A stretch of DNA of 64,000 nucleotides, from assembly GCA_021787535.1 (NCBI GenBank), contig JAJYLR010000001.1, forward strand, positions 83,648 to 147,647, given 5' to 3'. The DNA is from a bacterium (GTDB taxonomy: Bacteria; Patescibacteriota; CPR2; UBA1875; JAJYID01). Under the pieces are notes generated by a model. The model was not told the origin of the DNA and searched no databases. It saw nothing but the letters and a program-made list of their open reading frames with translations. Positions 20,736 through 64,000 of this stretch are shown here, in pieces (position 1 is the first letter of the stretch; every line of letters begins with the position of its first letter). The position numbers were made by a program, and so were the translations under genes.

Positions 20736-20763
20736 AGATTCCCGCCTGCGCGGGAATGACAAA
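20736..20763. repeat. Palindromic element, type B (GATTCCCGCCTGCGCGGGAATGAC), intergenic copy
   Basis: Identical or near-identical copies at 38295-38320 (in ppsA) and 54436-54463 (in uvrD). Confidence 0.85.
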
Positions 20764-31800: not shown

Positions 31801-32731
31801 TGCAGTGGGTATTGATCTGCAAAGCGGAGGAAATGCCTATATAGATAATGCAGTGATCAGTTTAGGACAGAATTCGCATGGCATTAATGTTGGTAGCTCA
31901 GGGTCGGCGTTTACCGGCAGTATGATTTCTGCCAGGATTGTAGGATATACCGGAAGCAGCCCGACCGGAACCATGATCAATTGGGCTAATGCCGGAGATG
32001 CCAACAACAACTTAACAGCCACAGTTTCGACACATACGGGAGAAACCGCTCTTGCAGGCAGTCCCGCAGCAAGTAATGAAATTAATATTTTATCAACAGG
32101 GACTGGGACAAATGCGAATTACAAAAACTTCTCAAGCGCCAATAACGTTGGGGTTGGGGTAATTAATTCTCAAAACAAGCTTAGCGTTAATGCTCCTGTT
32201 ACGGCTGACACGCTGGCAACCACGATAATTACGCCAACTGTGGCTTCGAACAAAGGTTTAGTAGTGCAAGGTTATACTTCGCAAACTGCTGACTTGATCC
32301 AGGCGCAAAGTTCACTAGGAGCCGTGTTATTTAAGATTGACAACTCGGGTAACTTGGCGGCTAAAAGCGCAACCTTCACCGGCACATTGACTATGAACGG
32401 TCATATTATTACCGGAAACTCAATCGGTTCGACGACGATTGCCGCCGGAGCTAATGCAGGAACGGGAGCCACGGCAACAATCAGTGGAAACGACACTTCG
32501 GGGACTATCACAGTGACGACTGGAACCGGCCCGGCTGCGGGAACTTTGGCAACTATTACATTTGCCGGTACCTATGGCTCGGCACCAAGAGTGGTTTTGA
32601 CACCAACCGGCGCAAATGGCGCAACTCTGCAATATTATGTCGGATCCACAACCACAACATTTACCTTATCTAGCGGTACGGCACCGACGGCTTCAACCGC
32701 CTACACCTACAATTATCAGGTAATGCAGTAG
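28862..32731 (+). CDS. Giant surface protein paralog (1289 aa) with the same N-terminal anchor, a shared conserved ~300-aa N-domain, a pectate-lyase-type beta-helix and a shared C-terminal domain
   Basis: VRAYGAKGDGKTDNTAAIQAAEDSLPDQGGTLYFPSGTF. The N- and C-terminal regions align with the upstream gene. The genes are in tandem with a 77-bp spacer. Confidence 0.8.
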   Translation: MYNPTKSTLIKIFSLISILILCGFLLVYELTIHEVNQKYKNQQSSQGNISLSTSDLSKDYVSLKGSNPQSGNINLEGNISGNDVQGQTITSTVQNGTSPLNVTSSTLVNNLNADMVDGKHADELTKTTVNNITNTTTGESIQPGTTGQYYRGDKSWQTLNSSAVGLGNVENTALSTWTGSNQVAILGTVTSGTWNAGAINAAGSITGTALQGTSLNLGSGAITSGAINGQTISSSANFTGTITAGGTINGATISGGTLSGGNVSGGTVQGGTLSSTAVNGVTTANILVNTGSYSDPSWLQGLAGSKITGDIQGNASGLTGSPNITVGTITSGNITSSGTLDITGTGDSTVGGNISVNPDFGSELTTNGNFNGSANNWLVSCTDYSSGSTACNTADTPNSVPASGWSYGSNSVSHASGTNNTDALYQDISNTAGETYGSNIITDSNFSLNPATNGWDWMDAGWHWVNNTAMTNAGGAYFGDDLGTSLTAGLYKVQFSTSGMPAGGQLKVALSSGGISEDAAVVSGNGQHTFYFTVGTTPETGGWPYYLYFDSTSVGTTIDNVSAQLVTGAQFGESQTQSYKVSFAVSGMTAGSLSANLGGVGGSPITANGTYTQYLIGKPNANIISFVPSHDAVFTLSNISVTPVQNGTITVQDIITKGGPKVDVRAYGAKGDGKTDNTAAIQAAEDSLPDQGGTLYFPSGTFLGHVTLKSNVHVEGAGINATILKLPNGANTDVIASKDFASLTGNTTNRDGVNRVTLDDITIDGNAGNNTAGYGVRKYGGQWNVHDVVIKNCAQDGVYSEWGSYGGAPLVADSMEDHWTNIMLTVNSGSGMTWNGPHDSVLDNFIVSSNSGNGINFENASGGVANGTQLKNSHIWGNSSTGYGLWIKTSINLDNDIVEGATGTGGIGIYVDSGGAILANGLQVYACETGVYISGVSPGGNNEITGITLSTITKANIVIYSAWSVRITGATISISSNSSSAVGIDLQSGGNAYIDNAVISLGQNSHGINVGSSGSAFTGSMISARIVGYTGSSPTGTMINWANAGDANNNLTATVSTHTGETALAGSPAASNEINILSTGTGTNANYKNFSSANNVGVGVINSQNKLSVNAPVTADTLATTIITPTVASNKGLVVQGYTSQTADLIQAQSSLGAVLFKIDNSGNLAAKSATFTGTLTMNGHIITGNSIGSTTIAAGANAGTGATATISGNDTSGTITVTTGTGPAAGTLATITFAGTYGSAPRVVLTPTGANGATLQYYVGSTTTTFTLSSGTAPTASTAYTYNYQVMQ

Positions 32732-37678: not shown

Positions 37679-37800
37679 AGAAAAGAGTAAAATAAGAATG
37701 ACTAATTACCAATATCTAATAACCAATCAATTCTAAAATTTAAAAATTAATTAATTGAAAATTGACTGGAAATTGGGACTTGAAAATTAGAAATTAAGGT

Positions 37801-37863: not shown

Positions 37864-40395
37864 ATGAGTAAGAATATACTTTGGTTTAAAGAAGTCGGGA
37901 AAGACGACGGAGCAAGGGTTGGCGGTAAGGGTGCAAATCTTGGTGAGATGTTTAGTGCCGGTCTCCCGGTGCCGAACGGTTTTATCGTCACGGCGCAGGC
38001 TTACTTTGATTTTCTGGATCATACCGGGCTCAAGGCAAAGATTGCAGAAGCGCTTGAAGGCTTAAATGTTGAGGATTCCAAGGATCTGCAAGCGAGAGCG
38101 GAAAAGGTGCAGAGTTTAATAAAGAAGGCTGATTTCCCCCAGGACTTAGCTAATGAAATTACCAAAAATTACCACAAGCTTTCTGAAGAAGGCCAAAAGG
38201 AAAAGGGAAGGAGCAAAAAAGAAGATTCCGGTCAAGCCGGAATGACGGAAGATTCCCCCAATACCCAATACCCAATACCCAATACAGATCGACTGGATTC
38301 CCGCCTGCGCGGGAATGACAAGGCGGGCGTATATGTGGCTGTTCGTTCGAGCGCGACGGCCGAGGATTTGGCTGATGCGTCATTTGCCGGCCAGCAGGCG
38401 ACATACCTGAACATTCTTGGCGATATTCCTGTTTTGCATGCGGTTTTAAAATGCTGGGCGTCGCTCTTTGAAGCCAGAGCTATTTATTATCGCGAAGACA
38501 AAGGGTTTGACCAGCTGGAAGTGGGTATTGCAGTGCCGGTGCAGAAAATGGTCAACTCCGAAAAAGCGGGAGTTATGTTTACCATTGATCCTACAAATAA
38601 CGACATGGAGCATATTTCCATCGAAGCGGCTTACGGGCTTGGCGAAGTGGTTGTTCTGGGCGCCGTTACCCCGGATCGTTATCTGATTGATAAAAAAACC
38701 AGGCAAGTGACCGACAAGGAAATTCACAAACAGACTTGGATGCTAACCCGCGAAGGCGGCAATGCCGATACGGATAACACGGAAGACATCTCAAAGAATG
38801 GCGTCCCCGTACCGGAGGATAAGCAAGGATTGCAAAAGCTGAGCGATGACGAAATCTCACAGCTTACCGATCTGGCTTTGAAAATTGAGAAGCATTACGG
38901 CAAACCGCAAGACACAGAGTGGGCGGTCGAGGGCGGAAAAGTTTACATGACCCAGTCGCGACCGATAACGACATTGCCAAGTAAAGATGATCAGGCAGGA
39001 ATGGATTCCGGACAAGCCGGAATGACAAATGAAGGGCAGGATATTTCCGAGGCCAAAGTGATATTAAAAGGTTCGGCGGCATCAGTCGGGATGGCCGGGG
39101 GACCGGTAAAGATCATTCATTCGCCGAGCGAGATAGACCAGATCTTGGACGGCGATGTTTTGGTCACAGAAATGACCACCCCGGATTTCGTGCCGGCTAT
39201 GAAGAGGGCTTCGGCTATCGTTACTGATGAAGGCGGACGGACCTGCCATGCGGCCATTGTTTCAAGAGAACTTGGTATTCCTTGCGTTGTCGGGACTGAG
39301 ACAGCTACAACTACGCTTAAGGATTACCCGAAAGTAACCGTCGATGGCAAAAGCGGCGCGGTTTATGAAGGTAAGGTTAAATCTCAATCGGATTCTGGAC
39401 AGGATTCTGGACAAGCCAGAATGACGAGCTCAGAGCCAGCGCCGATAACTGCCACGAAAATTTATGTCAACTTGGGAGAACCGGAACTGGCCGAGAAAGT
39501 AGCGGCTCGCGACGTCGATGGGGTGGGCTTGCTGCGCGCTGAGTTCATTATCATGGAGTCCATCGGCGAACATCCCAAGAAAATGATCAAGGAAGGGCGC
39601 CAAGAGGAATATATTACAAAACTAGCCGAAGGACTGGAAACATTTGCCCGGGCCTTTGATCCAAGACCTGTTGTTTATAGGGCTACTGATTTTAAGACTA
39701 ACGAATATCGAGGGCTAAAGGGCGGAGAAGAGTTCGAGCCCGAGGAAGACAATCCGATGATCGGCTATCGCGGCTGCTTCAGATACTTAAAAGATCCGGA
39801 AGAATTTTCATTGGAGCTTGAGGCGATTAAAAAAGTGCGCCAAAACCACAGAAATCTCCACCTGATGATTCCCTTTGTTCGCCGCACCGATGAGTTTCAA
39901 AAAGTTAAAGCAATGGTCGAAAAGAGTGGATTAAATAAAGAGAGCGACCCCGACTTTAAACTTTGGATTATGGTGGAGGTGCCATCGGCTGTTATCGAAA
40001 TAGAAAAGTTCTGCCAGATGGGCATCGACGGCGTGTCAATCGGCTCAAATGACCTGACCCAGCTGACTTTGGGATTAGATCGGGATTCAAATCTTGTGGC
40101 AGAGGAGTTTGATGAGCGAAACGATGCCGTCCAATGGATGATTAAAAGAACGGTGGAAACATGCAAAAAATACGGCGTTACTTGCTCGATCTGCGGCCAG
40201 GCGCCAAGCGTTTATCCCGAAGTAGCGCAGAAAATGGTGGAGTATGGCACCACATCCATTTCCGTAAACCCCGATATGATTGAGAGCACGCGCAAACTGG
40301 TGGCGCAGGTTGAAGAGAAGATTTTGATGAATGAAATGAGCGCAGTTCAGGCGAAATTGTCTGAATTGGAACAAAAGATAGAGACAAATGAGTAA
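37864..40395 (+). CDS. ppsA: Phosphoenolpyruvate synthase (pyruvate, water dikinase)
   Basis: N-terminal ATP-grasp VGGKGANLGEM, phosphohistidine domain GGRTCHAAIVSRELGIPCVVG, and a C-terminal PEP-utilising domain SICGQAPSVYPE...SVNPD. A ggaggg RBS is present. It contains three in-frame repeat-element insertions. Confidence 0.85.
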   Translation: MSKNILWFKEVGKDDGARVGGKGANLGEMFSAGLPVPNGFIVTAQAYFDFLDHTGLKAKIAEALEGLNVEDSKDLQARAEKVQSLIKKADFPQDLANEITKNYHKLSEEGQKEKGRSKKEDSGQAGMTEDSPNTQYPIPNTDRLDSRLRGNDKAGVYVAVRSSATAEDLADASFAGQQATYLNILGDIPVLHAVLKCWASLFEARAIYYREDKGFDQLEVGIAVPVQKMVNSEKAGVMFTIDPTNNDMEHISIEAAYGLGEVVVLGAVTPDRYLIDKKTRQVTDKEIHKQTWMLTREGGNADTDNTEDISKNGVPVPEDKQGLQKLSDDEISQLTDLALKIEKHYGKPQDTEWAVEGGKVYMTQSRPITTLPSKDDQAGMDSGQAGMTNEGQDISEAKVILKGSAASVGMAGGPVKIIHSPSEIDQILDGDVLVTEMTTPDFVPAMKRASAIVTDEGGRTCHAAIVSRELGIPCVVGTETATTTLKDYPKVTVDGKSGAVYEGKVKSQSDSGQDSGQARMTSSEPAPITATKIYVNLGEPELAEKVAARDVDGVGLLRAEFIIMESIGEHPKKMIKEGRQEEYITKLAEGLETFARAFDPRPVVYRATDFKTNEYRGLKGGEEFEPEEDNPMIGYRGCFRYLKDPEEFSLELEAIKKVRQNHRNLHLMIPFVRRTDEFQKVKAMVEKSGLNKESDPDFKLWIMVEVPSAVIEIEKFCQMGIDGVSIGSNDLTQLTLGLDRDSNLVAEEFDERNDAVQWMIKRTVETCKKYGVTCSICGQAPSVYPEVAQKMVEYGTTSISVNPDMIESTRKLVAQVEEKILMNEMSAVQAKLSELEQKIETNE
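38221..38325. repeat. Composite in-frame insertion in ppsA: type A half-element (gattccggtcaagccggaatgac), (CCCAATA)x4 heptamer, and type B element (ggattcccgcctgcgcgggaatgac)
   Basis: Read directly from the sequence. It is translated as EDSGQAGMTEDSPNTQYPIPNTDRLDSRLRGNDKAG. Confidence 0.85.
39003..39028. repeat. Type A half-element (ggattccggacaagccggaatgacaa) in frame in ppsA
   Basis: Translated as DSGQAGMT. Confidence 0.8.
39391..39425. repeat. Type A half-element with a 12-bp internal duplication (gattctggacag-gattctggacaagccagaatgac) in frame in ppsA
   Basis: Translated as SDSGQDSGQARMT. Confidence 0.8.
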
Positions 40396-41246: not shown

Positions 41247-42547
41247 AGATAAAAAATATAAAAGCAAATGAAATACTGGATTCACGGGGCAATCCCACCG
41301 TTTCTACCGAGATAGAGTTGGAAAACGGCATAATTTCTCATGCATCGGTTCCCAGCGGGGCGTCGACCGGTATTCATGAGGCGCATGAGCTGCGTGACGG
41401 CGACATGAAACGTTTTGACGGCAAAGGAGTCTTAAAGGCCTGTCAAAACATTGAGCAGATTATACAGCCGGAAATTAAAAAAATTGACATTGAAAATCAG
41501 GCGGAAATCGATAGTAAAATGTGCGAGCTGGACGGCACAAAAAACAAGGAAAAACTCGGAGCAAATGCTATTTTAGCGGTTTCGATCGCGGCTCTTAGGG
41601 CTCATGCCGCACATAACGGTAAAGAGCTGTATGAGATTATCGGCGAGCTTTACGGATTTCATGATTTTCGCCTTCCCAAGCCCTTGTCGGTTATTCTAGA
41701 AGGCGGCAAACATTCGGATTCTAATTGTGAAATCCAAGAATTCATGATTCAAATCGAGGAAGAGAAAATCGAGGAAAATTTACGGAAGATTGAACTTGTT
41801 TACCATTCGCTTGAGCAGGTGCTTGAAAGCCAGGGTAAAAATACCAACATTGGTTATGAAGGAGCATTTGGTCCGAATTTAACCTCGAACCGGGAGGGGC
41901 TTGATCTGATTATGCAGGCGATTGAAATGTCCGGATTAAAGCCCCGATATGATGTGCGTATTGCCCTCGATATTGCTGCCAGTGAATTTTACGATACTGA
42001 GAGCAGCCAATACCTTCTAAAAAGTGAGAACATTGCTCTGCGCGGGAGCCAGATGGTGGCTTACAATGAAGAGTTAGCGAGGGATTATCCTATCCTTTCT
42101 ATCGAAGACGGCATGTACGAGGATGACTGGGAAGGATGGCAAGCGCTCTATGAGCGTCTGGGCGATAAAATCATGCTGGTTGGCGACGATCTGTTTGTGA
42201 CCAACACCGAGCGCATTAGAAATGGCATTGATCGCCATGCTGCTAACGCAGTTTTGATTAAGCCGAATCAGATTGGTACAGTGACAGAAACCATCGAAGC
42301 TGTCAAAATGACCAAATTTGCCAGTTGGGAACCGATTGTTTCGCACAGGAGCGGAGAGACGAACGATAGTTTTATCGCCGATCTGGCCGTGGCGATCAGC
42401 GCCAAGTATATTAAAGCCGGCGCGCCGGCCAGAGGCGAGAGAGTAGCGAAATATAATCGGCTGATGGAAATTTCCTCTGTCATTCCCGCCCCCGATCGGG
42501 TCGAGGGTAAAGCTTCGGCGGGAATCCAGGAAGATAATTCAAAATGA
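41243..42547 (+). CDS. eno: Enolase
   Basis: ILDSRGNPTV N-terminus, the SHRSGETND signature and IKPNQIGT. Confidence 0.95.
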   Translation: MKIKNIKANEILDSRGNPTVSTEIELENGIISHASVPSGASTGIHEAHELRDGDMKRFDGKGVLKACQNIEQIIQPEIKKIDIENQAEIDSKMCELDGTKNKEKLGANAILAVSIAALRAHAAHNGKELYEIIGELYGFHDFRLPKPLSVILEGGKHSDSNCEIQEFMIQIEEEKIEENLRKIELVYHSLEQVLESQGKNTNIGYEGAFGPNLTSNREGLDLIMQAIEMSGLKPRYDVRIALDIAASEFYDTESSQYLLKSENIALRGSQMVAYNEELARDYPILSIEDGMYEDDWEGWQALYERLGDKIMLVGDDLFVTNTERIRNGIDRHAANAVLIKPNQIGTVTETIEAVKMTKFASWEPIVSHRSGETNDSFIADLAVAISAKYIKAGAPARGERVAKYNRLMEISSVIPAPDRVEGKASAGIQEDNSK

Positions 42548-44004: not shown

Positions 44005-45276
44005 ATGCAGAAGATTCTTTTTATCATATTTGACGGGCTTGGCGATAGGCCTATCAAAAAATTTGGCGGGCTGACTCCGCTTGAAGCGGCGCATACCCCT
44101 AATATGGATCAATGGGTACACAAGGGCATTTGCGGAACGATGAATGCCATGCCAACCAATTTATATCCGACAAGCGAAGAAGCGCACCTGGCCATTTTCG
44201 GCTATGATTTTGTGAGAGATTATCCCGGACGGGGAGTTTTGGAAGCGCTTGGCATTGGCATTAAATTAAAACCGGATGAGATGGCATTTCGCATAGATTT
44301 CGGGACGGTGGATCAAAGTTTAAAGCTGATTGATCCGAGAGCGGGAGTGATTGAGTCGACTGAGAAGCTGTGCAAGGCGGTCGACGGAGTTGAGGTGGAC
44401 GGGGTAACTTTCAAGATTTATCCTTCGCTTCTATATCGGGGTGTTTTGGTTCTTTCGGGCCAGCCGGTTAAAAATTATCTGAAAAAAGTCAAGCATGCTG
44501 CAATTTCTGATACTGATCCTCACAAAAGCGGGCCTCACAAACTGGATGTTAGAGTGCTTCATCCCCAGTCATTTGGCGAGTGCCGCGAGGGTAAAACGGT
44601 GGCTAGAGCACTGGAGCGGTACCAGTATTTGACGCATGAGATTCTAGAAGAGTATAAGGTTAACAAAAAAAGAGTTAAGCAAGGCCTGCCGCCGGCAAAC
44701 TTTATCCTGGCGCGCGGTGAAGGCAGACTTAAGCCCGTCCAAAGCTTCAAAGATAGATACGGCTTGAAAGCCGCTTGCGTTGCCGGTGCCCCGCTCTACA
44801 AAGGCATTGCTTCATATTTAGGCATGGATGTCCTGCATGTTCGGGGAGCGACCGGAACGCTAGATACAAATGCCGATGCAAAAGTGAAAGCTTCTATAAA
44901 AGCGCTCAAAAAGAATGATTTTGTATTCTTGCATTTCAAAGGAACGGATATGGCAGCCGAAGAACTAGGTAGTCCAGAGCTCAAAAAGAAATTCATCGAG
45001 AAAGTTGACAAATCGTTTTCAAGACTTTCCGGGCTCAAAAATGTTATGATAGTAGTGACCGGTGATCACTCGACACCCTGTGAACTGCACGACCATTCGA
45101 CAGATCCAGTACCGCTGTTAATTAACAGCCAATTTCCAATACCTAATGCCCGATTAAATTCCCAAGGCAAAAGGTCAAATGCCAAGTTTGGAGAGAGCGA
45201 GTGCAAAGATGGCAATTTGGGACATATTTATGGGAAAGACATGATGAAAAAATTATTGGAAATGAGGGCAATGTAG
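44005..45276 (+). CDS. apgM: 2,3-bisphosphoglycerate-independent phosphoglycerate mutase, archaeal type
   Basis: The N-terminal ILFIIFDGLGDRP metal-binding motif characteristic of ApgM. The size is 423 aa. Confidence 0.8.
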   Translation: MQKILFIIFDGLGDRPIKKFGGLTPLEAAHTPNMDQWVHKGICGTMNAMPTNLYPTSEEAHLAIFGYDFVRDYPGRGVLEALGIGIKLKPDEMAFRIDFGTVDQSLKLIDPRAGVIESTEKLCKAVDGVEVDGVTFKIYPSLLYRGVLVLSGQPVKNYLKKVKHAAISDTDPHKSGPHKLDVRVLHPQSFGECREGKTVARALERYQYLTHEILEEYKVNKKRVKQGLPPANFILARGEGRLKPVQSFKDRYGLKAACVAGAPLYKGIASYLGMDVLHVRGATGTLDTNADAKVKASIKALKKNDFVFLHFKGTDMAAEELGSPELKKKFIEKVDKSFSRLSGLKNVMIVVTGDHSTPCELHDHSTDPVPLLINSQFPIPNARLNSQGKRSNAKFGESECKDGNLGHIYGKDMMKKLLEMRAM

Positions 45277-47166: not shown

Positions 47167-47231
47167 GATAAAAAACCAATGACCTATACCCAATAACTAA
47201 TCAAATCCTAATTTAAAAATTTTAAAATTCA

Positions 47232-49571
47232 TTGATTGAAAATTCAAAAATCGGAGGGGCTTTGCTAGATCGTTTCTTCAATCCAAAGAGTGTAGCTGTT
47301 ATCGGGGCTTCTCATCATAAAGAGAAGCTTGGGTTTTTGGTTTATGACAATATCAGAAAATACGGTTATAAAGGAAAACTTTATGGAGTGAATATCAAGG
47401 GCGGTTCCGCACATATTTCGCGTAAAAAATCAGGAGCGCAAAATATGTGCGGAATTCCACTCTACAAAACTGTAGGCGATATCCCTGGGCCGATAGATTT
47501 AGCTGTTGTGGTGATACCTGCGAAAGCTGTACCTCAAATAGTTAAAGATTGCGGTAAAAAAGGAATAACTTCTGTCATTATTATCTCGGCCGGGTTTTCT
47601 GAAACTGGAGCAGAAGGCAAAAAGTTAGAGGAAAAAATTGCCGATTTGTCACATAAATACGGTATCAGAATCTTGGGGCCGAACTGTCTCGGCATCATCG
47701 ACTCTTGGAGCAAAATGAACGCCTCTTTTGCCGAAAGTATGCCGGACAAGATGAAGATTTCTCTTCTTTCCCAGTCAGGAGCCATCTGCACGGCTATTTT
47801 AGACTGGGCCAATAGCGAAGAAATCGGTTTCTCCAGATTTATTTCTTTGGGCAATAAGCTTGATATCGATGAAAATGATGTCTTGGCTTATCTAGCCCGT
47901 GACACAAAAACCAAAGTTGTCCTGGCATATCTCGAAAGCATTGCCGATGGCCAGAAATTTATGGATAATGCTAGAAATCTTGCCTTGAAAAAGCCATTTA
48001 TCATGGTGAAGTCAGGCCGAACCAGCGAAGGCGCCAAAAGCATCTCTTCTCATACGGGCAGTATTGCCGGGTCGGATATTGTTATCGATACCGCTCTTCG
48101 CCAGAGCGGAGTGATACGGGCTGAGAGCTTAGAGGACCTCTTTGATCTGGCAAAAATATTTGCCTTTTCACCGGAAATGAAAGGCAAGAACGTTGCTGTT
48201 ATTTCAAATGCCGGCGGTCCGGCAGTTATGCTTGCCGATACGATTGGTCAAAGCCGCTTAAAGCTGGCTAAGTTTGAGCCAAAAACCCGTAAAATTCTAG
48301 AAGAGACATTGCCTCCTGAAGCTGCGACTCATAATCCTGTAGACGTCATCGGTGATGCCAGAGCCGATCGTTATGAAACTGCTACTTGCGAGGTTTTAAA
48401 AGATGAAAATGTTGATGCGGCCATAGTTGTTTTAACACCCCAAGTTATGACAGAGATTGAAGCGACAGCTAAAGTCATTAACAAGGCAAAAAAGTACGGA
48501 AAACCTTTGGCGGTATCTTTTATTGGCGGAGAAAAAGTCGGAGATGGCAGGAAAATTCTCGAAGACTTTGAAATACCTTCATATGAGTTTCCGGAGAGAG
48601 CGATCAAAGCGCTAGAAGCACTATTTGAGTACTATGAATTTAAGAGACACTATGGTCTTTGTCATTCCGACTGCCACCACGTGAGTTGCAAGCGGAGGAA
48701 TCCCTTAAAGAATAGCCAATTTCCAATAACCAATGACCAATCAAGCTCTAATAATCAGATGTCAAACAAAGGTGGTCATTCTGGGGACGGCAGGACCCCG
48801 GAATCTAATACAGATAAGGATTCTGGACAGGTCAGAATGACGAACAACAGGCAAAAGGTATCTGAAATTATCGGACCGGTATTTAACCGGCGCCAAAAGC
48901 TTATCACAGACGGAAGTTCGAGCGCTTTTGATGTTTTTGACGCCTATGGTATCAGCACTATCAAAAGAGCATATGGTCTGGGACTAAAGGATTTGAAAAA
49001 GAAATCGGAAGAACTGGGGTTTCCGCTTGTTGCGAAGACTTGCGCCGAAGGCGTTTTGCACAAAACGGATATTGGCGGAGTCAAGTTGGGTATGAGAGAT
49101 GAAAGCGAACTGCAAAAAGCGTATTTTTCAATTTGTAATAAAGTGCGAAAAGCTGGTTTCGAGGAGGGTTCGGATCGGGTTGACATTTATAAACAAGAAG
49201 AGGACGGCGTCCAAATATTTCTGGGCGCAAAAAAGGATTCCAGTTTTGGACCGCTCATAATTTTTGGTTTAGGCGGAATATTCGTCGAGGCGCTTAAAGA
49301 TTTTTCATATAGAATCGCGCCGGTTACGCATACCGAGGCCAAGAGAATGATCGGCGAAATAAGATCGCAGAAAGTTCTAAACGGTTTTCGGGGCATGCCG
49401 GAAGTTGATCGGGACAAAGTGGCAGATGCAATCGTTGGTTTGTCCCAGCTTATGCTCGACTTCCCGGAAATCAAAGAAGTAGATATTAATCCCTTAATGG
49501 CAACGGATAAAAAATGCGTTGCCATAGACGGAAAAATAATTTTGGACTTAGAAGTAGACCATGGTTTCTAA
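47232..49571 (+). CDS. Acetyl-CoA synthetase (ADP-forming), fused alpha/beta type. The real start is probably the TTG at 47265, which has a GGAGG RBS.
   Basis: The CoA-binding N-terminus FFNPKSVAVIGAS, succinyl-CoA-synthetase-like flavodoxin domains and a C-terminal ATP-grasp. A ~60-aa repeat-element insertion sits in the inter-domain linker. Confidence 0.85.
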   Translation: MIENSKIGGALLDRFFNPKSVAVIGASHHKEKLGFLVYDNIRKYGYKGKLYGVNIKGGSAHISRKKSGAQNMCGIPLYKTVGDIPGPIDLAVVVIPAKAVPQIVKDCGKKGITSVIIISAGFSETGAEGKKLEEKIADLSHKYGIRILGPNCLGIIDSWSKMNASFAESMPDKMKISLLSQSGAICTAILDWANSEEIGFSRFISLGNKLDIDENDVLAYLARDTKTKVVLAYLESIADGQKFMDNARNLALKKPFIMVKSGRTSEGAKSISSHTGSIAGSDIVIDTALRQSGVIRAESLEDLFDLAKIFAFSPEMKGKNVAVISNAGGPAVMLADTIGQSRLKLAKFEPKTRKILEETLPPEAATHNPVDVIGDARADRYETATCEVLKDENVDAAIVVLTPQVMTEIEATAKVINKAKKYGKPLAVSFIGGEKVGDGRKILEDFEIPSYEFPERAIKALEALFEYYEFKRHYGLCHSDCHHVSCKRRNPLKNSQFPITNDQSSSNNQMSNKGGHSGDGRTPESNTDKDSGQVRMTNNRQKVSEIIGPVFNRRQKLITDGSSSAFDVFDAYGISTIKRAYGLGLKDLKKKSEELGFPLVAKTCAEGVLHKTDIGGVKLGMRDESELQKAYFSICNKVRKAGFEEGSDRVDIYKQEEDGVQIFLGAKKDSSFGPLIIFGLGGIFVEALKDFSYRIAPVTHTEAKRMIGEIRSQKVLNGFRGMPEVDRDKVADAIVGLSQLMLDFPEIKEVDINPLMATDKKCVAIDGKIILDLEVDHGF
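48661..48842. repeat. Composite in-frame insertion in the acs linker: type C variant, a CCAAT-type heptamer stretch, and a full type A element (gtcattctggggacggcaggaccccggaatc-N13-gattctggacaggtcagaatgac)
   Basis: Read directly. It is translated as CHSDCHHVSCKRRNPLKNSQFPITNDQSSSNNQMSNKGGHSGDGRTPESNTDKDSGQVRMT. Confidence 0.85.
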
Positions 49572-50037: not shown

Positions 50038-51141
50038 GTGGCAACTCAAACTAAAACTAAAACGGTTTTAATGACCGGGAATCAAGCGGTGGTGAAAGCG
50101 GCTTTGGCTGTCGGTGCTGAGATGTTCAGCGGTTATCCGATAACGCCGACTACTGAAATTCTGACCGAATGGTCAAAAGCGGCCGAAAATAATAAAGATC
50201 TCATATTTTTGCAGACCGAGGATGAGCCGGCGGCCGGCTTTGTGATGATTGGCGGAGTTTCCATGGGCAAAAAGGCTTGGACGGCGACAGCCGGCGTCGG
50301 GCACGTTCTGATGCAGGATCCGCTCTCTATGGCAGAAGCTATGAGAATCCCGACGGTGACTTATATCGGCCAGCGCGGCGGTCCCTCAACCGGCACAGTG
50401 ATCTATTCCCAGCAAGAGCTGAATCTGGCTCGGATGGGCGGAAACGGCGAAGGCCTTCGCATCGTCTTTGCGCCTTCGAACCTGCAAGAACTCTACGATC
50501 TGACCATTAAGGCATTTAATGTAGCTTGGAAATACCGGTTTCCGACATTTATTCTATCCGACGGATATCTTGCCAAAACATATGGAGAAATTGAGCTTTG
50601 GCAGCCAAACAAATCGGAAATCGTGCCGACCGAAAGTTTCTTTTTGAATCCCAAAACAAGTCCGAACAATATCAGAAACTGCTACTCTATGGAGGTTGAG
50701 CTTTATGACCAACTGCTCAAAGACTTTGCCGATTATGCCAAAATGTCAGAGAAAGTTGAAGAAAGCGAGCTACTTGGCGACAAGAAGACAAATCTTTTAG
50801 TTTGCGCCTGGGGTGCGGTAGGAAACTCGGCTAAAACAGCGCTTAAGGCACTGGAAAAACAAAACATTTATTTTAAACTTTTCCGTCCGATTACTCTTAG
50901 GCCGTTTCCGGCAAAAGATCTGCAAAAAGCGGCGGAAGGAGTGACGGATATCCTCATTTTAGAGTCAGCAAACGGGCAGTTTGGCCGCATTGTGCGAGAA
51001 TCTTTGTATGGCACGACCGAAGCCGAAGTGCATCGCCTGTACAAACCGGCTATGGGCATCATGCCGGAAGAAATTCAAGCCAAAGTTAAGGAAGTATTTA
51101 AATTGGAGGATTCTGGACAAGCCAGAATGACGCAATCATGA
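50038..51141 (+). CDS. 2-oxoacid:ferredoxin oxidoreductase alpha subunit (pyruvate/2-ketoisovalerate type)
   Basis: LMTGNQAVVKAALAVGAEMFSGYPITPTTEI matches the PorA/KorA N-terminus. The C-terminal tail EDSGQARMTQS is encoded by a type A half-element. Confidence 0.85.
   Translation: MATQTKTKTVLMTGNQAVVKAALAVGAEMFSGYPITPTTEILTEWSKAAENNKDLIFLQTEDEPAAGFVMIGGVSMGKKAWTATAGVGHVLMQDPLSMAEAMRIPTVTYIGQRGGPSTGTVIYSQQELNLARMGGNGEGLRIVFAPSNLQELYDLTIKAFNVAWKYRFPTFILSDGYLAKTYGEIELWQPNKSEIVPTESFFLNPKTSPNNIRNCYSMEVELYDQLLKDFADYAKMSEKVEESELLGDKKTNLLVCAWGAVGNSAKTALKALEKQNIYFKLFRPITLRPFPAKDLQKAAEGVTDILILESANGQFGRIVRESLYGTTEAEVHRLYKPAMGIMPEEIQAKVKEVFKLEDSGQARMTQS
51108..51131. repeat. Type A half-element (ggattctggacaagccagaatgac) forming the 3' end of the OFOR alpha gene
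   Basis: Identical to the copy at 39403-39425. Confidence 0.85.
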
Positions 51142-54139: not shown

Positions 54140-56647
54140 ATGGCGGATTTTTTAGATGATTTAAATGAGATGCAGAAAGAGGCGGTCAAAACTACCGAAG
54201 GGCCCCTTCTTATTTTAGCCGGGGCCGGCAGCGGCAAGACCAAAGCCCTGACTTACCGCATCGCTTACTTAATTAGCGAAAAAAATGTCGATCCGGAGCG
54301 GATTTTGGCCGTGACTTTTACCAATAAAGCGGCCAAGGAAATGGTCTCGAGAGTTGAGAAACTACTCTCGAGAAATAACCAATTTCCAAGTCCCAATTTC
54401 CAATCAATTTTCAATGATCAAAATTCAAAAAGTCTGGATTCCCGCCTTCGCGGGAATGACAAGGAGGGAAAGGGATCCGTCGACTCCCATTCGGCTGCGC
54501 TCAGGGCAGGCTTTCGCGAAGTCGCTCAGAATGACAGAAAAGGGGAGCAAGAAGTCTGTCGAAATGACCCACGCACCGAAAATGGTGCGGGGCAAGCAAT
54601 ACAGAATACCGAATACTCAATACAGCATACTGTCACCGGCCGCAGGCCTGTCATGGGTACTTTTCACTCTGTTTGCGTCAAAATTCTACGGCGGGAGATA
54701 GGCCATCTCGGCTATAAATCGAGCTTTACCATTTATGACTCGGGCGACTCCAATAGGGCGGTAAAGATTGCCATGAAAGAACTCTCTATTGATGAGAAGA
54801 AATTCAATCCCAGAACAATACAAAATTACATCTCCTCGGCAAAAAATGAGCTGATTGGCGAGAAAGAGTACGCTGCGCTCGTCAACGGCTATATCCAGGA
54901 AATGGCTTCCAAAGTGTACTTTGAATACCAAAAAATTCTTAAAAACGCCCATGCGCTGGACTTTGACGATCTGATTATGAAGACGGTAGAAATCTTCCAA
55001 AAATTTCCAGAAATCTTGGAGAAATATCAGAAGCAATTCAAATATATTCATATAGATGAGTATCAGGACACAAACCACGCCCAGTATGTTTTTTCAAAAC
55101 TGCTGGCAGCTAAACATGAAAATATCTGTGTGGTGGGGGACGACTGGCAAAGTGTTTATGCATTTCGCGGGGCGAACTTCCAGAACATCCTAGATTTCGA
55201 GAAGGATTATCCGAATGCAAAAGTGGTCAAACTTGAGCAAAATTATAGATCAACAAAAACCATTTTGGATGCTGCCCATCATATTATCAAAAAGAATGAA
55301 AACCGAAGCGACAAAGAGCTCTGGACTGAAAACATTCTGGGTGTTCCTATCCTGACATTTGAGGCAAAAGACGAGGTAGATGAAGGAAGATTTATCATTC
55401 AGGAAATTTCGAGTTCAGCCCGCGATCTTTCTGATTTTGCTGTTTTATACCGCACAAATGCCCAGTCAAGAAGCCTTGAAGAACAGTTTCTAAAAGCCGG
55501 CATGAAGTACAGGATTTTCGGAGGAGTGAGGTTCTATGAGCGAAAGGAAATTAAAGATATTATCGCATACCTCAGGTTCATTCAGAATCCAAATGACTGG
55601 GTGGCGCTCGAGCGGATTATCAATGTTCCGTCGAGAGGAATAGGGGCAGCTAGTTTGAAAAAAATAAAGGAATTTTTTTCAAATAATTTGCAATTTCCAA
55701 TTTCCAATTTTCAATCAAATTCCAATAACCAAATTCCAAACAAAAGCCGTCATTTTGGGGACGATAGGACTCCAGAATCAAACTCGGATAAGGATTCTGG
55801 TCAAGCCAGAATGACGGAAGGTAAGGGTGACTTGGTTGGTATACTGGAAAAAGTGAAATTCAGCAATATTCTTTCCGGCAAAGCGCTAGCCGGATTTAAG
55901 TCATTTATGAAAGCCATTATTGAGCTCGAAGATCAGAAAGATAAATTGCAACTGGTGAAGTTCATCGATCAGGTTATGAAAAAAACCGGCTACTATGATT
56001 CGCTTGATGACAAAACTATCCAAGGTGAAGAAAGGCAGGAAAACCTGAAAGAGCTTTTGTCGGTAGCAGAGGAATTTGTCAAGGATAGAGAAGACTTCGG
56101 TCTTGAGGATTTTCTCGAGGAAGTGGCTCTTATTTCCGATATTGATAACTACTCGGAAGACGAGCAGTCCGTGGCGCTTATGACCTTGCATTCGGCCAAA
56201 GGGCTCGAGTTTCCCTGTGTTTTCATTGCCGGGATGGAAGAGGGGATCTTTCCGCATTCTCGTTCACAGCTTGATATCGAAGAAATGGAAGAAGAGCGCA
56301 GATTGGCATATGTCGGTATCACAAGAGCAAAAGAAAGAGCGTATCTGGTTAGCGCTCGCAGGCGTCTTCTCTATGGAAACTATCAGTCCAATCCGGCGTC
56401 GAGATTCATCTCTGATATTCCCGGTGAGCTCAAGAAAGACATTAACCGGTTTGAAACGTCATTGGACTCAAAGATTTATGAAAAGCAAATCCCGCAGTTT
56501 GCTCCCGGAGAAAAAGTTCTGCATGACAAGTTTGGCGTAGGCATAGTCCAAGACGTCAAAGGCGATGAGATGACTGTATCTTTTGAAAAGGTGGTGGGTC
56601 TCAAAGTTCTCTCTACCATTTACGCGCCGATTGAGAAGATAAGATGA
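54140..56647 (+). CDS. uvrD: ATP-dependent DNA helicase UvrD/PcrA (SF1). The ORF-track start at 54074 lies inside the upstream terminator; the ATG at 54140 is preferred.
   Basis: Motif I LLILAGAGSGKTKALTYRIAYLI, then GTFHSVC, DEYQDTN and later SF1 motifs. tataat at 54127-54132 sits 7 nt before the ATG, implying a leaderless mRNA. There are two large in-frame repeat insertions. Confidence 0.85.
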   Translation: MADFLDDLNEMQKEAVKTTEGPLLILAGAGSGKTKALTYRIAYLISEKNVDPERILAVTFTNKAAKEMVSRVEKLLSRNNQFPSPNFQSIFNDQNSKSLDSRLRGNDKEGKGSVDSHSAALRAGFREVAQNDRKGEQEVCRNDPRTENGAGQAIQNTEYSIQHTVTGRRPVMGTFHSVCVKILRREIGHLGYKSSFTIYDSGDSNRAVKIAMKELSIDEKKFNPRTIQNYISSAKNELIGEKEYAALVNGYIQEMASKVYFEYQKILKNAHALDFDDLIMKTVEIFQKFPEILEKYQKQFKYIHIDEYQDTNHAQYVFSKLLAAKHENICVVGDDWQSVYAFRGANFQNILDFEKDYPNAKVVKLEQNYRSTKTILDAAHHIIKKNENRSDKELWTENILGVPILTFEAKDEVDEGRFIIQEISSSARDLSDFAVLYRTNAQSRSLEEQFLKAGMKYRIFGGVRFYERKEIKDIIAYLRFIQNPNDWVALERIINVPSRGIGAASLKKIKEFFSNNLQFPISNFQSNSNNQIPNKSRHFGDDRTPESNSDKDSGQARMTEGKGDLVGILEKVKFSNILSGKALAGFKSFMKAIIELEDQKDKLQLVKFIDQVMKKTGYYDSLDDKTIQGEERQENLKELLSVAEEFVKDREDFGLEDFLEEVALISDIDNYSEDEQSVALMTLHSAKGLEFPCVFIAGMEEGIFPHSRSQLDIEEMEEERRLAYVGITRAKERAYLVSARRRLLYGNYQSNPASRFISDIPGELKKDINRFETSLDSKIYEKQIPQFAPGEKVLHDKFGVGIVQDVKGDEMTVSFEKVVGLKVLSTIYAPIEKIR
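54370..54655. repeat. ~285-bp composite in-frame insertion in uvrD between helicase motifs I and Ia: heptamer stretch, type B element, an inverted type C variant, and AATAC-type repeats
   Basis: Translated as a ~95-aa insert: SRNNQFPSPNFQSIFNDQNSKSLDSRLRGNDKEGKGSVDSHSAALRAGFREVAQNDRKGEQEVCRNDPRTENGAGQAIQNTEYSIQHTVTGRRPV. The type B copy at 54436-54463 matches 20736-20763. Confidence 0.85.
55684..55814. repeat. Composite in-frame insertion in uvrD: (AATTTCC)-type heptamer stretch plus a full type A element (gtcattttggggacgataggactccagaatc-N13-gattctggtcaagccagaatgac)
   Basis: Translated as NLQFPISNFQSNSNNQIPNKSRHFGDDRTPESNSDKDSGQARMT. Confidence 0.85.
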
Positions 56648-59051: not shown

Positions 59052-59289
59052 CGTCCAAGGCGTTTTCTATCGCTTTAGCGCGAAGATGGAGGCGGAAAAG
59101 CTGGGAATAACAGGTTTTGGTGAAAATGAGTCTGATGACAGTGTCCTTATAATCGCAGAAGGCGAACAGGAAGCGTTGGAAAAATTTAGCCGGTGGTTGA
59201 AAGAAGGCCCGCCGATGGCTGAAGTTGAAGATGTACAGATCGAGGAAGATGATTATACTGGAGAATTTAAAGGTTTCGAGGTCCGGTAA
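59020..59289 (+). CDS. acyP: Acylphosphatase
   Basis: The VTGDVQGVFYRFSAKMEAEKLGITGF acylphosphatase signature. It overlaps the rsmA 3' end in another frame, and the exact start is uncertain. Confidence 0.65.
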   Translation: MRRWRIKVTGDVQGVFYRFSAKMEAEKLGITGFGENESDDSVLIIAEGEQEALEKFSRWLKEGPPMAEVEDVQIEEDDYTGEFKGFEVR

Positions 59290-60011
59290 TGCTGTATGTA
59301 GTTTCTACTCCGATTGGTAATCTGGATGACATCACTCTTCGCGCGCTCGAAACCTTAAAGAATGTCGATCTTGTTGCCTGCGAAGATACGCGCCATACAA
59401 AAATCCTGCTTGATAAGCATAGTATCCCTTTTTGTCATTCTGGGGACGGTAGGACGCCAGAATCTGATTCTGGGCAAGCCAGAATGACGAGCCGGTCACG
59501 GCTCGTCAGCTATCATCAGCATTCAGGGTCAGTAAAAACCGAGAAAATTCTAACGATGCTGAAAGATGGCAAAGATGTTGCTCTTGTGACTGATGCCGGT
59601 ACGCCCGGTATTTCTGATCCTGGCAGTAAGTTAGTTGCCGAAGCAGCAGCAGATGGTATCGAGATTACATCCATTCCGGGCCCTGCCGCCTTTGTGAGTG
59701 CTTTAAGCGTTTCTGGATTTGACACTTCTGAATTTATTTTTATCGGATTTCTTCCTCACAAAAAGGGACGGCAAACAAAGCTGAAAGAAATAAGCGGTGA
59801 AAAGCGGACAGTTGTGTTGTATGAATCGGTACATCGGATAAAAAAGTTGTTCGGAGAGCTGTCAGAAATTATTCCAAACAGAGAGATATGTGTTTGCCGT
59901 GAACTGACTAAGAAATTTGAAGAGATCTATCGTGGAAAACCATCAGAGCTCATGGATCAAATTATAGAAAAAGGAGAATTTGCGGTTGTTATAGGAGGCA
60001 GAAATGATTAA
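59289..60011 (+). CDS. rsmI: 16S rRNA C1402 2'-O-methyltransferase (tetrapyrrole-methylase fold)
   Basis: LYVVSTPIGNLDDITLRALETLKNVDLVACEDTRHT matches the RsmI N-terminus. It contains one in-frame type A insertion. Confidence 0.85.
   Translation: MLYVVSTPIGNLDDITLRALETLKNVDLVACEDTRHTKILLDKHSIPFCHSGDGRTPESDSGQARMTSRSRLVSYHQHSGSVKTEKILTMLKDGKDVALVTDAGTPGISDPGSKLVAEAAADGIEITSIPGPAAFVSALSVSGFDTSEFIFIGFLPHKKGRQTKLKEISGEKRTVVLYESVHRIKKLFGELSEIIPNREICVCRELTKKFEEIYRGKPSELMDQIIEKGEFAVVIGGRND
59434..59488. repeat. Full type A element, short form (gtcattctggggacggtaggacgccagaatc-tgattctgggcaagccagaatgac), in frame in rsmI
   Basis: Translated as CHSGDGRTPESDSGQARMT. Confidence 0.85.
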
Positions 60012-61326: not shown

Positions 61327-62778
61327 ATGTCTAAAAAGTTTTATATAGATACTTCTATTCCGTATGCAAACGGAAATCCCCACATAGGACATCCTCTGGA
61401 TCCTTTATACGGTGATGTTCTAGCAAGATATTATCGCGCTAACGGTTATGATGTTTTTTTTCTTGTCGGCTTGGACGAGAATGGCCAAAGCGTTTACAAC
61501 AAAGCCAAATGCGCGGAAGTCCCGGTTCAGGAGTTTACTGAGAATGTGCGCAAGAAATTCATAGAAATGCATGAAAAGTTAAATGATTCTTACGATGGAT
61601 TTATCAGGACTACCGATAAAAAACTGCATTGGCCGACGGCGCAGGAGATATGGAAAAGGGCTGAGAAGGCCGGTGATATTTACAAAAAAAACTATCAAGG
61701 GCTTTACTGTGTCGGTTGTGAAGAGTTCAAGCTGGAAAGAGATTTGGTTGATGGCAAATGTCCGGATCACCAAACCAAACCGGAGAAAATCGAGGAGGAA
61801 AACTATTTCTTCAAACTCTCAAATTACCAAAAATTTTTACAGGATTTGTTTGATAAAAATCCGGATTTTGTTTATCCGAAAAACAAATATAACGAAGCTT
61901 ATCAAATCATCAAAGGTGGGCTGGAAGACGTAAGTATTTCCCGGCCGAAGGAAAGGCTTCCGTGGGGTGTACCCGTGCCGGGTGATGACAGCCACGTTAT
62001 GTATGTCTGGTTTGACGCGCTGACAAATTACTTATCCGGTATTGGGTTTACCTCAGACAAAAAGAAATTCGAAAGGTATTGGCCGACTGACCTAAACATC
62101 GTTGGCAAAGACAACAACAAATGGCATTCTATTCTCTGGCCGGCAATTTTAAAGTCGGTAGGACTTCAGTTGCCTAAGAAAGTTTTTGTTCATGGGCACG
62201 TTCTTGGCAAAGGCAATGTAAAGATGAGCAAAACGATAGGCAACGTAGTCGATCCGATGGAGATGATTGATAAATATGGGGCTGATGCTTTTCGATATTT
62301 TATTCTTGCCAAAATCCCAGTGGATTCTGATGGCGCCTTTGATGAAGATCATTTCAGGGAAGTTTATAATTCAGAGCTTTCAAATAAGTTGGGTAATCTT
62401 TTACAGAGAACAATTTCAATGATTAATAAGTATAATGTAAAAATTTCTGACAAGGAGATCGACAGGTTTGGCGGAAGCATAGACGAAAAGATCGGGAATT
62501 TAGATTTTAATGGGGCTTTGCGTTCAGTTATTAGAATGGTAGAGGTGGCAAATGAAGAAATTGATAGTAAAAGACCTTGGGAATTGGCAAAATCTGGTAA
62601 AACGAGAGAGCTAAATGCATTATTAAGTGAAATCTATTGGATATTGAATTCAGTAGCCAAAAATATCTATCCTTTCATGCCCGACACCAGTAAAAAAATG
62701 AAAAAACAGCTTAAAAATTTAAAACCGGTACCTTTGTTTCCGAGGATGGAGAAAGATTCCCGATCGGGTCGGGAATGA
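61327..62778 (+). CDS. metG: Methionyl-tRNA synthetase (class I, compact form)
   Basis: The HIGH motif ANGNPHIGHPL, the KMSKS motif VKMSKTIGN, and the zinc-knuckle region CVGCEEF...CPDHQ. Confidence 0.9.
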   Translation: MSKKFYIDTSIPYANGNPHIGHPLDPLYGDVLARYYRANGYDVFFLVGLDENGQSVYNKAKCAEVPVQEFTENVRKKFIEMHEKLNDSYDGFIRTTDKKLHWPTAQEIWKRAEKAGDIYKKNYQGLYCVGCEEFKLERDLVDGKCPDHQTKPEKIEEENYFFKLSNYQKFLQDLFDKNPDFVYPKNKYNEAYQIIKGGLEDVSISRPKERLPWGVPVPGDDSHVMYVWFDALTNYLSGIGFTSDKKKFERYWPTDLNIVGKDNNKWHSILWPAILKSVGLQLPKKVFVHGHVLGKGNVKMSKTIGNVVDPMEMIDKYGADAFRYFILAKIPVDSDGAFDEDHFREVYNSELSNKLGNLLQRTISMINKYNVKISDKEIDRFGGSIDEKIGNLDFNGALRSVIRMVEVANEEIDSKRPWELAKSGKTRELNALLSEIYWILNSVAKNIYPFMPDTSKKMKKQLKNLKPVPLFPRMEKDSRSGRE

Positions 62779-62783
62779 CAAGC
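62755..62783. repeat. Type B variant element (gattcccgatcgggtcgggaatgacaag) forming the last codons and the TGA stop of metG
   Basis: The ORF ends ...EKDSRSGRE, followed by a TGA that lies inside the gggaaTGAc terminus of the element. Confidence 0.8.
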
Positions 62784-62849
62784 GTAGGAGGGTAAGTGAA
62801 ACACTATATTAATCACATTCATCATAGCAAAAACCGAGAGCTTAATGAG

Positions 62850-64000
62850 ATGTACGTTGCCATGAGCATGCGTTCGTTTGCGATTTCTCTGATCGGTATC
62901 TTCATCCCAATCTACCTTTTCACGATCGGATACTCGCTTCGGAACATATTCCTTTTCTATATCATGGCAAATACTTTTCAGTTTGTTGGTGATTATTTGT
63001 CCGGTCATGGCATAGCCAGATATGGCGCTAAGCATTTGCTAATCGCCAGCTATCCGATGATGGCCGTCAATTTGACCATGCTTGTTACAATGAAAACTTT
63101 CCATTGGCCGCTTTGGGCTTTGGCCCTCACTACCGCTGTTGCCTTAAATCTCTTCTGGACTCCGTATCACGATGATTTTTCAAAAGCAAAAGATAAAAAG
63201 TCAGCGGGAAGACAGGTCGGCAGATGGATTATTTTGTCAGAAGTTTGCGGCGCTTTCGGACCTTTGCTTGGCGGCATTATTGCTCAAAGGTTTGGTATGA
63301 CTTATGGCATTATCGCGGCACTTGTCATAGTGGTCGGGGCAATGATCCCGCTTCTAGGCAAACACGAAATAGTGCCCAGAAAACCTTTCAATCGAAGCGC
63401 CTGTTCAGTCAAAAAATATTATAAAGATCTGATCGCATATGGAGGTTTAAGTTTGGAGGGAATGACGGTTGGCGTGGTCTGGCCGCTTTTCCTATACTTT
63501 TTTATCAGGGATTTTGCCAAAGTGGGCTTCATTGTCACAATGTCGTTTTTGCTCGTCATATTTTTATCGCTTCTTATTGGCAAATTGACTGATCAATACG
63601 GGAAAGAAAGGGCAATGAAAACTGGGAGTGTCGTAACATTTTTTACTGCGGGATCGCGCGTACTAACATCGGGGGTCTCTATGGCTTATGTGATTGGTAC
63701 CGTTTCGTCGCTTTCCCAGATATTTCTCCTTATCCCTTTCTATAGCGTATTCTATATCCATGCGGATAAAGAACCAAGGACAGAGTATGTGACGCTGATG
63801 GAAATGTCGGTTGATGTTTTTCGCGGGATTCTTTATGGGATTATGTACGCAAGTACTTTCTTTCTGCCGGTTCGCTATGTCTTCTTAATTGCTTTCTGTT
63901 TCGCGGCAGTCGGCGCTCTCACAACCAGCTTAATTGCCCGATCTGGTAAGAGTTTGCCAAAGCAAATTAAAACTCATAGAGAAATTGCAAAGGCCAGGGT
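62850..64000 (+). CDS. Polytopic membrane transporter-like protein (MFS-like), truncated at the 3' end by the window. Not in the ORF track because there is no stop.
   Basis: Manual translation from the ATG at 62850 (MYVAMSMRSFAISLIGIFIPIYLF...) stays open to the window end, with many hydrophobic helices. It is in frame with an upstream GTG at 62805. Confidence 0.5.
   Translation, partial: MYVAMSMRSFAISLIGIFIPIYLFTIGYSLRNIFLFYIMANTFQFVGDYLSGHGIARYGAKHLLIASYPMMAVNLTMLVTMKTFHWPLWALALTTAVALNLFWTPYHDDFSKAKDKKSAGRQVGRWIILSEVCGAFGPLLGGIIAQRFGMTYGIIAALVIVVGAMIPLLGKHEIVPRKPFNRSACSVKKYYKDLIAYGGLSLEGMTVGVVWPLFLYFFIRDFAKVGFIVTMSFLLVIFLSLLIGKLTDQYGKERAMKTGSVVTFFTAGSRVLTSGVSMAYVIGTVSSLSQIFLLIPFYSVFYIHADKEPRTEYVTLMEMSVDVFRGILYGIMYASTFFLPVRYVFLIAFCFAAVGALTTSLIARSGKSLPKQIKTHREIAKAR

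Follow-up and report, generated by a model that had tools for sequence, protein, structure and literature searches.

The methionyl-tRNA synthetase gene (metG) in the DNA studied here, a 64-kb window of contig JAJYLR010000001.1 from a bacterium of the Patescibacteria, also called the candidate phyla radiation (CPR), very probably owes its stop codon to a short repeat. The original stop appears to have been taken over by the conserved tag of a 25-nt hairpin resembling repetitive extragenic palindromic (REP) elements, in a neutral event that has long been tolerated. As we picture it, the hairpin adjoins the last conserved metG codon, the native stop that would have followed ...EK is gone, and translation enters the hairpin for seven codons (DSRSGRE) before halting at the TGA formed where the final T of the stem meets the GAC(A) tag. 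The take-over would be a by-product of repeat dynamics in a genome whose hairpins are unusually often translated. Its neutrality, its route (an insertion or the loss of a stop) and the means by which the repeat family spreads are matters that we infer.

The preliminary description of this region held that the methionyl-tRNA synthetase (MetRS) open reading frame (ORF) runs into a variant of the repeat form called type B and terminates at the TGA within its ...GAATGAC end, and both the coordinates and the frame agree with it (Table 1). The protein ends in ...PLFPRMEKDSRSGRE*, and the TGA sits within GGAATGAC (62772-62779), the 3′ end of the repeat. The two arms of the repeat enclose the loop TCGGG. 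The TGA comes into frame in metG because the 25-nt variant is read in the usual phase of the family, which begins with GAT. Since TGA closes 15 of the 45 long ORFs in the window, where coding density is 0.89 with translation table 11, a recoding of UGA was ruled out. The next gene, coding for a transporter of the major facilitator superfamily (MFS), starts 17 nt past the metG TGA, and its ribosome-binding site (RBS), AGGAGG, lies 8 nt past the stop.

We compared the window MetRS with the 60 MetRS proteins most similar to it. About half of these (~30) end exactly in ...PLFPR(L/M/I)(E/D)K; the length check proposed in the preliminary description thus finds the window protein seven residues longer, all of them repeat-encoded. 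The EK codons are followed directly by TGA in loci L001, L003, L203 and L206 and by TAA in L204. The gene order rsmI, HAD, HAD, metG, MFS is kept in L001 and L002, the latter being a sister locus from another sample and assembly whose MetRS is 83.7% identical to that of the window. The L002 metG ORF has the same length as the window ORF and ends in ...LDQDYRSDQK, with TAA at the same codon. Its terminal DNA, GACTATCGATCAGATCAGAAATAAC, has 8 substitutions over the 25 positions when set against the window copy, mainly G>A, and the hairpin is lost; the downstream string AGGAGGGTArGTGAAACAC is common to both. From the same extension length and stop position it follows that the extension predates the split between the window and L002, and these sequences place the origin of the seven codons in the common ancestor of the two organisms.

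The same comparison bears on a concern raised in the preliminary description, namely that a sequencing error shifts the frame and that the true stop lies elsewhere. The most obvious form of such an error would be a 1-nt indel in the G-rich loop, as canonical type B copies measure 24 nt where this one has 25; a 24-nt copy here would carry the ORF on for another 13 codons, to a TAA. This is contradicted by L002: although assembled independently, that locus agrees with the window in the length of the ORF, in the 25 nt and in the codon used as stop, which makes a sequencing frameshift very unlikely. Variants with an 8-bp stem, a 5- or 6-nt loop and a complete GAATGACA end also occur in other metagenomes, with 25 nt in contigs L089 and L095 and 26 nt in L151 and L199, and the deposited protein P0001 is identical to the window ORF. 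Taken together, an assembly or sequencing error has only the faintest probability. As these stem-8 variants recur in unrelated contigs, the metG copy is a genuine family member; the 25-nt subvariant in L095, which carries the full GAATGACA end, is near-identical to it and intergenic.

It had also been claimed that the metG stop is donated by the end of the palindrome, and this was borne out, as the TGA is followed by CAAG like the equivalent position in other type B copies. Every copy of the family has GAC after GAAT, and the continuation GACAAG is found in three of four type B-like copies (metG and those starting at 38296 and 54437). Because the TGAC(AAG) end is common to other copies, the sequence assigns the metG TGA most probably to the element itself and not to a retained native stop. 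Alternatively, the TGA could be the ancestral metG stop, with a 21-nt tagless piece, GATTCCCGATCGGGTCGGGAA (7 codons), inserted in frame before it and nothing donated. Such an insertion would suit the four relatives with TGA directly after the EK codons (L001, L003, L203 and L206), and 21 nt is a multiple of three. However, it would have to lack the otherwise invariant tag and to lie beside a native flank that happened to read TGACAAG, and the chance of a native flank matching CAAG is ~1/256. L001 and L003, which are among the closest empty sites, have TGATAG after the stop, not TGACAA, and the same 25-nt variant exists complete with its tag in L095. We therefore consider an ancestral TGA quite improbable and retain the element as the source of the stop.

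Two routes could have made the TGA of the element the working stop. The element may have landed on the metG stop codon, at a site that is possibly a recurrent target. Alternatively, ~5 nt containing the native stop may have been lost beside a repeat already resident 2 nt downstream, as in L001 and L003. Both of these loci carry a hairpin, GATT(T/C)TCG-TTTCGG-CGAGAA, 2 nt past the native metG TGA and without the TGAC tag. The two hairpins differ at one stem position, where L003 has a C-G pair and L001 a T·G wobble; relative to the window copy, both have a compensatory T-A for a C-G pair. Since relatives have element-like hairpins just past the native stop, stop loss beside a resident repeat would explain the metG end as well as insertion, and we treat the two routes as equally good; either would leave the element's TGA in use. 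The insertion phase on which the preliminary wording makes the use of the TGA depend may therefore be a mistaken picture. No target-site duplication was visible at metG or at rsmI, where filled and empty flanks are not alignable at the nucleotide level. Other relatives also have family-like sequences in this flank. GGATT remnants lie just 3′ of metG in L203 and L205, an oppositely oriented pair of canonical type B copies occupies positions 2045-2170 of L204, within ~90 nt after the metG stop, and a canonical type B copy is found ~157 nt past metG in another Patescibacteria assembly (L051, 2568-2590). The 3′ flank of metG seems to harbour this family recurrently.

In the window, which amounts to about one tenth of the ~636-kb contig, the family has 21 copies, and its unit is a single hairpin. 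Type A, GATTCTGGnCAAGCCAGAATGACG, is 23 nt long with a 7-bp stem and a 5-nt loop; type B, GATTCCCGCCTGCGCGGGAATGACA, is 24 nt long with a stem of 8 and a loop of 4; the 25-nt metG variant is the third short form. There is also a longer form, GATTCCTCGG...CTCGGAATGAC, and a form with the tag reversed, GTCATTCTGGGGACGGyAGGACnCCrGAATC, that makes head-to-head pairs with type A. Dimers are found at 59434-59488, 48775-48841 and 55750-55815. The string GGAATGAC occurs 13 times against 1.84 expected, a count reached in none of 100 shuffles, and all short, G+C-rich window hairpins of the form ATTC...GAAT carry GAC on one side only.

The preliminary description further suggested that the family may act as a built-in portable stop codon. 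The potential is real, in that types A and B and the metG variant each have a stop in exactly one of six frames, and this stop is the tag TGA; it follows from the definition of the class, since the stem-end AT and the complement of the tag make ATGAC. As to its use, 16 of the 21 window copies lie within or overlap ORFs, and all 11 forward intragenic copies, metG included, share one phase, GAT TCy. Translated this way, the 23- and 24-nt types are read through as DSGQARMT and DSRLRGND, and only the 25-nt variant meets the TGA. The embedded TGA is used by one window copy in 21. When copies at gene ends were surveyed, as had been advised, three were found within 25 nt of a gene end (metG, oxidoreductase alpha and enolase), and the TGA is used in metG only. 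The oxidoreductase ORF stops 10 nt past its type A copy, leaving the embedded TGA unused, and the enolase ORF stops 21 nt beyond its reversed long type B copy. Outside the window, a metagenome scan with the pattern GATTCCCG-N4-9-CGGGAATGAC returned 150 copies in 120 loci, mostly of other phyla (type A was surveyed in the window only). In eight of these copies the embedded TGA closed an open frame of 100 codons or more; all eight were rejected as spurious, lying on contigs of 62-68% G+C with translations rich in R, A and G and without a Pfam match. In the 47 low-G+C loci all copies were intergenic, and none of the 150 metagenome copies made convincing use of the TGA. Likewise, seven copies in the MetRS loci of other Patescibacteria (1.34 Mb, including the ortholog loci) were all intergenic, and none uses it. 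These counts speak against a portable stop as a property of the family, and stop donation is best read as something other than a dedicated function of the element.

From a functional perspective, the sequences give no sign of selection on either the hairpin structure or the tail peptide, because the hairpin is lost in L002 and only three of the seven tail residues are identical between L002 and the window. The hydrophilic tail comes after the final conserved motif in the MetRS anticodon-binding domain. Many bacterial MetRS proteins continue past this domain into a C-terminal tRNA-binding domain. Since an extra domain is carried at this very point elsewhere, a short hydrophilic tail is plausibly harmless, and the seven residues probably do no damage. 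One could also imagine that selection favoured the hairpin at the stop codon as a regulatory device, acting in termination, in the coupling of translation to the MFS gene or in the stability of the mRNA 3′ end, and that the family has evolved a stop-bearing version. The predicted RNA forms a stable 9-bp hairpin that includes the U of UGA, the stop lies 8 nt ahead of a strong RBS, and its position is maintained in L002. REPs near stop codons have been reported to lower translation in E. coli, which counts toward such a role, as do the C-G versus T·G stem difference between L003 and L001 and the compensatory T-A pair that both show relative to the window copy. However, the palindrome decayed in L002 though the end of the ORF was kept, and folding of the region gives a z-score of just -0.99. 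No terminator-like site was found within 62500-63000, where the metG hairpin is followed by GACAAGCGTAGGAGG without a T-run. In addition, recurrent use of the TGA was seen neither in the 150 + 7 copies outside the window nor in the two other gene-end copies inside it. A regulatory device thus appears very unlikely, and neutral tolerance remains the better account of the metG end.

Based on its sequence, we place the repeat in the CGTC/TGTC-tagged REP class, where it resembles Neisseria NTS/dRS3 and the short Rickettsia RPEs. In the available passages of Di Nocera, De Gregorio & Rocco (2013, BMC Genomics 14:522, PMC3733652), this class, which includes RPE-4 and RPE-6 of Rickettsia conorii, has an asymmetric CGTC, TGTC or CCTC tag, an 8-9 bp stem beginning with AT, a 4-5 nt loop and a short tail at the untagged end, mostly CCA. 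The same passages describe multi-copy elements, present as head-to-head or tail-to-tail dimers and often near ORF 3′ ends, that are sometimes intragenic (UvrD and tRNA synthetases are named) and for which a dedicated transposase is not known. On the opposite strand, the metG copy is cTTGTC-ATTCCCGA..., with the tag TGTC, and type A copies have CGTC. The metG arms, ATTCCCGA and TCGGGAAT, give 8 bp around a 5-nt loop, the type A stem being slightly short, and the 21 copies with three dimer sites correspond to the described multi-copy and dimeric arrangement. The type B tails are CCA at 38296 and 54437 and CTA at 20737. Three differences from the published class were noted: the host is a member of the Patescibacteria/CPR, a group absent from the passages of PMC3733652; the stop comes from the complement of a CGTC-type tag (AT|GAC giving TGA), which those passages do not mention; and the intragenic share, 16 of 21 copies in 64 kb, is far higher.

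The type B copies link the family to Neisseria. They read TGTCATTCCCGCG(C/A)AGGCGGGAATCCAG, one mismatch from the NTS consensus CGTCATTCCCGCGMAVGCGGGAATCYRG given in the available part of PMC11893778 (Nat Commun 2025;16:2388), and they match the dRS3 pattern ATTCCC-N8-GGGAAT exactly. More precisely, the three canonical copies are TGTCATTCCCGCG(C/A)AGGCGGGAATC, after which two of them have CAG and the one at 20737 has TAT, and it is the two CAG copies that correspond to the NTS consensus with one mismatch. We also applied the Ssn-related motif (SRM) pattern from the same paper, HGTCWYN(0-2)YYVSBRHN(0-5)WNVSBRGN(0-2)RNCYNB, which had three matches in the window, all canonical type B copies, against 0.17 in shuffles. 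In the NTS/Ssn system, according to that part of the paper, the GIY-YIG gene ssnA is typically flanked by repeats and Ssn cuts their single-stranded hairpin site-specifically; stop-codon use or in-frame coding is not mentioned in its passages. No GIY-YIG or ssnA-like gene was detected in the window by motif or by tblastn, a weak negative given the approximate tblastn queries and the size of the window relative to the contig. No GIY-YIG domain was present among the 20 window ORFs scanned with Pfam, and no RAYT-like ORF was found in the window either.

Several points weigh against the account given here. The SRM pattern is matched neither by the metG variant, whose stem ATTCCCGA is different, nor by type A copies. 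The metG copy has the tail CTT and not CCA, although this is a soft feature of the class, as in PMC3733652 CCA holds for "most" tails only. The hairpins of L001 and L003 are tagless, so that the case for their homology to the window copy is made by GATTC, the arms and a single compensatory pair. When the metG-MFS spacers were aligned with MAFFT, the result was too ambiguous to separate insertion from stop loss. Finally, neutrality is read only from the decay of the palindrome in one sister lineage.

Stops provided by the ends of REPs and miniature inverted-repeat transposable elements, or MITEs, have already been published, and metG provides their counterpart of the CGTC/NTS type in a CPR genome. 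In the available passages of PMC3733652, the ends of GTAG REPs frequently supply a TAG stop to flanking ORFs, and ~10% of intragenic REPs are at ORF ends. In Coxiella burnetii, QMITE1 gives the stop of ubiB and CBU_2020, and QMITE1 and QMITE2 overlap the 3′ ends of functional genes and add C-terminal residues, EnhC being extended in one strain (BMC Genomics 2018;19:247, PMC5896051). The QMITEs differ from the window repeat in being MITEs of larger size that carry terminal inverted repeats as well as direct repeats, and their sequence is unrelated. Rickettsia RPE-1 (Ogata et al. 2000, reviewed in PMC2229807), as far as the accessible part of the review goes, is found in frame and translated in conserved housekeeping genes and is apparently tolerated, like the palindromic repeats of the window. 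RPE-1 differs in its size (~100-150 bp), its alphaproteobacterial hosts and its unrelated sequence, and the focus in that part of the review is on internal insertions, not on stop donation. We found no literature on such repeats inside CPR genes, within an incomplete coverage. The metG case extends the GTAG/TAG observation to a CGTC/NTS-type tag, whose opposite strand yields TGA, and to the CPR, and it gives a single-nucleotide view of how a repeat hairpin takes over the end of an essential gene and persists through speciation. For annotation, DSRSGRE tails and internal DSGQARMT or DSRLRGND peptides in CPR proteins are to be taken as repeat-derived and not as lineage-specific motifs. The donation of the stop by the repeat itself looks incidental.

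Table 1. Positions of metG, its hairpin repeat and other repeat copies in the 64-kb window.
Feature	Position	Strand	Remarks
metG ORF, methionyl-tRNA synthetase	61327..62778	+	483 aa, coordinates include the stop; Pfam tRNA-synt_1g, E=2e-95
Seven repeat-encoded codons, DSRSGRE	62755..62775	+	After the family-typical MetRS end ...PLFPRMEK
metG stop TGA	62776-62778	+	Final base of the stem, then GA from the GAC(A) tag
TGTC-tagged REP-like hairpin repeat, GATTCCCGATCGGGTCGGGAATGAC	62755..62779	+	25 nt; type B variant, 8-bp stem, 5-nt loop
5′ arm, ATTCCCGA	62756..62763	+	Pairs in the RNA fold
3′ arm, TCGGGAAT	62769..62776	+	Last T is the first base of the metG stop codon
Asymmetric tag GACA	62777..62780	+	TGTC on the other strand; conserved non-palindromic family end
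Downstream MFS transporter gene, RBS and start	62786..62798	+	RBS AGGAGG 62786-62791; start GTG 62796-62798
Type A copy, 3′ end of 2-oxoacid:ferredoxin oxidoreductase alpha ORF	51109..51131	+	GAT phase, DSGQARMT
Long type B copy, reversed, 3′ end of enolase ORF	42479..42526	-	Read through as VIPAPDRVEGKASAGI
Canonical type B copy within PPDK/PEP synthase ORF	38296..38319	+	DSRLRGND; reverse complement, TGTCATTCCCGCGCAGGCGGGAATCCAG, one mismatch away from the published Neisseria NTS
Canonical type B copy within UvrD/PcrA ORF	54437..54460	+	DSRLRGND; matches the published SRM pattern
Canonical type B copy, intergenic	20737..20760	+	122 nt downstream of pgk; matches the SRM pattern
Regions with in-frame copies	38224-39425, 48661-48841, 54374-54620, 55681-55815, 59434-59488, 14478-14501
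CCAAT-type repeats and composites	48707-48842, 55681-55816; also 54357-54429, 45107-45179, 37688-37763, 47169-47244

More striking than the stop of metG are the copies lying in frame within housekeeping genes. PPDK/PEP synthase contains 4-5 hairpins, ADP-forming acetyl-CoA synthetase 3, UvrD/PcrA 4-5, RsmI 2 and RNase HI 1; genes with in-frame hairpins or composite modules are those for PPDK, UvrD, ADP-forming acetyl-CoA synthetase, RsmI, RNase HI, enolase and oxidoreductase alpha. Pfam domains span the inserts, as with UvrD-helicase, which covers 351 residues against a profile of 271 positions, and the RsmI ortholog of L001 is without the 23-aa insert. The forward intragenic copies give the GAT phase peptides DSGQARMT, DSGQAGMT and DSRLRGND. 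Other stop-free phases are available, one forward and three reverse, and the chance of a single phase throughout is roughly (1/2)^10 to (1/3)^10. The bias could come from selection for a hydrophilic peptide or from spread as larger in-frame modules. A broader proposal would be that the hairpins are translatable, phase-locked modules on at least eight housekeeping proteins, shaped by selection or by the insertion mechanism into a family that would reshape the loops and ends of proteins and be more than tolerated DNA, with the stop-bearing variant as part of the set and the length of 23, 24 or 25 nt deciding between read-through and stop; we regard it as unlikely.

The hairpins have neighbours of another kind. 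A/T-rich CCAAT-type repeats (families D3, D4, D7, D8 and D10) stand beside them and form composite modules of ~140 nt or more. Those in the acetyl-CoA synthetase and UvrD genes are 77% identical to each other, and the modules are translated as N/Q/S-rich linkers. This mosaic organisation is reminiscent of the NIMEs of Neisseria or the BIMEs of E. coli.

At the end of the enolase gene (42479-42547), ...AKYNRLMEI is followed by read-through of the reversed long type B copy (SSVIPAPDRVEGKASAGIQEDNSK*). The last 12 profile positions of Pfam Enolase_C are unmatched in the window enolase, and its C-terminus appears to have been replaced by repeat sequence. The enolase and metG copies have a common 13-nt string on the + strand, CCCGATCGGGTCG, with their tags facing opposite ways, which may reflect chance or a common internal module. 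In rsmI, L002 (898-1684) has a larger and different A/T-rich low-complexity insert of ~45 aa exactly where the window gene (59289-60011) has two hairpins, which suggests that an ancestral cluster of repeats at a common site has decayed or turned over. Elsewhere in the window, two adjacent large ORFs, 23163-28784 (1873 aa) and 28862-32731 (1289 aa), have in common internal repeats of ~300 nt that are ~80% identical (D1, D2 and D9), and they probably code for paralogous surface or repeat proteins.

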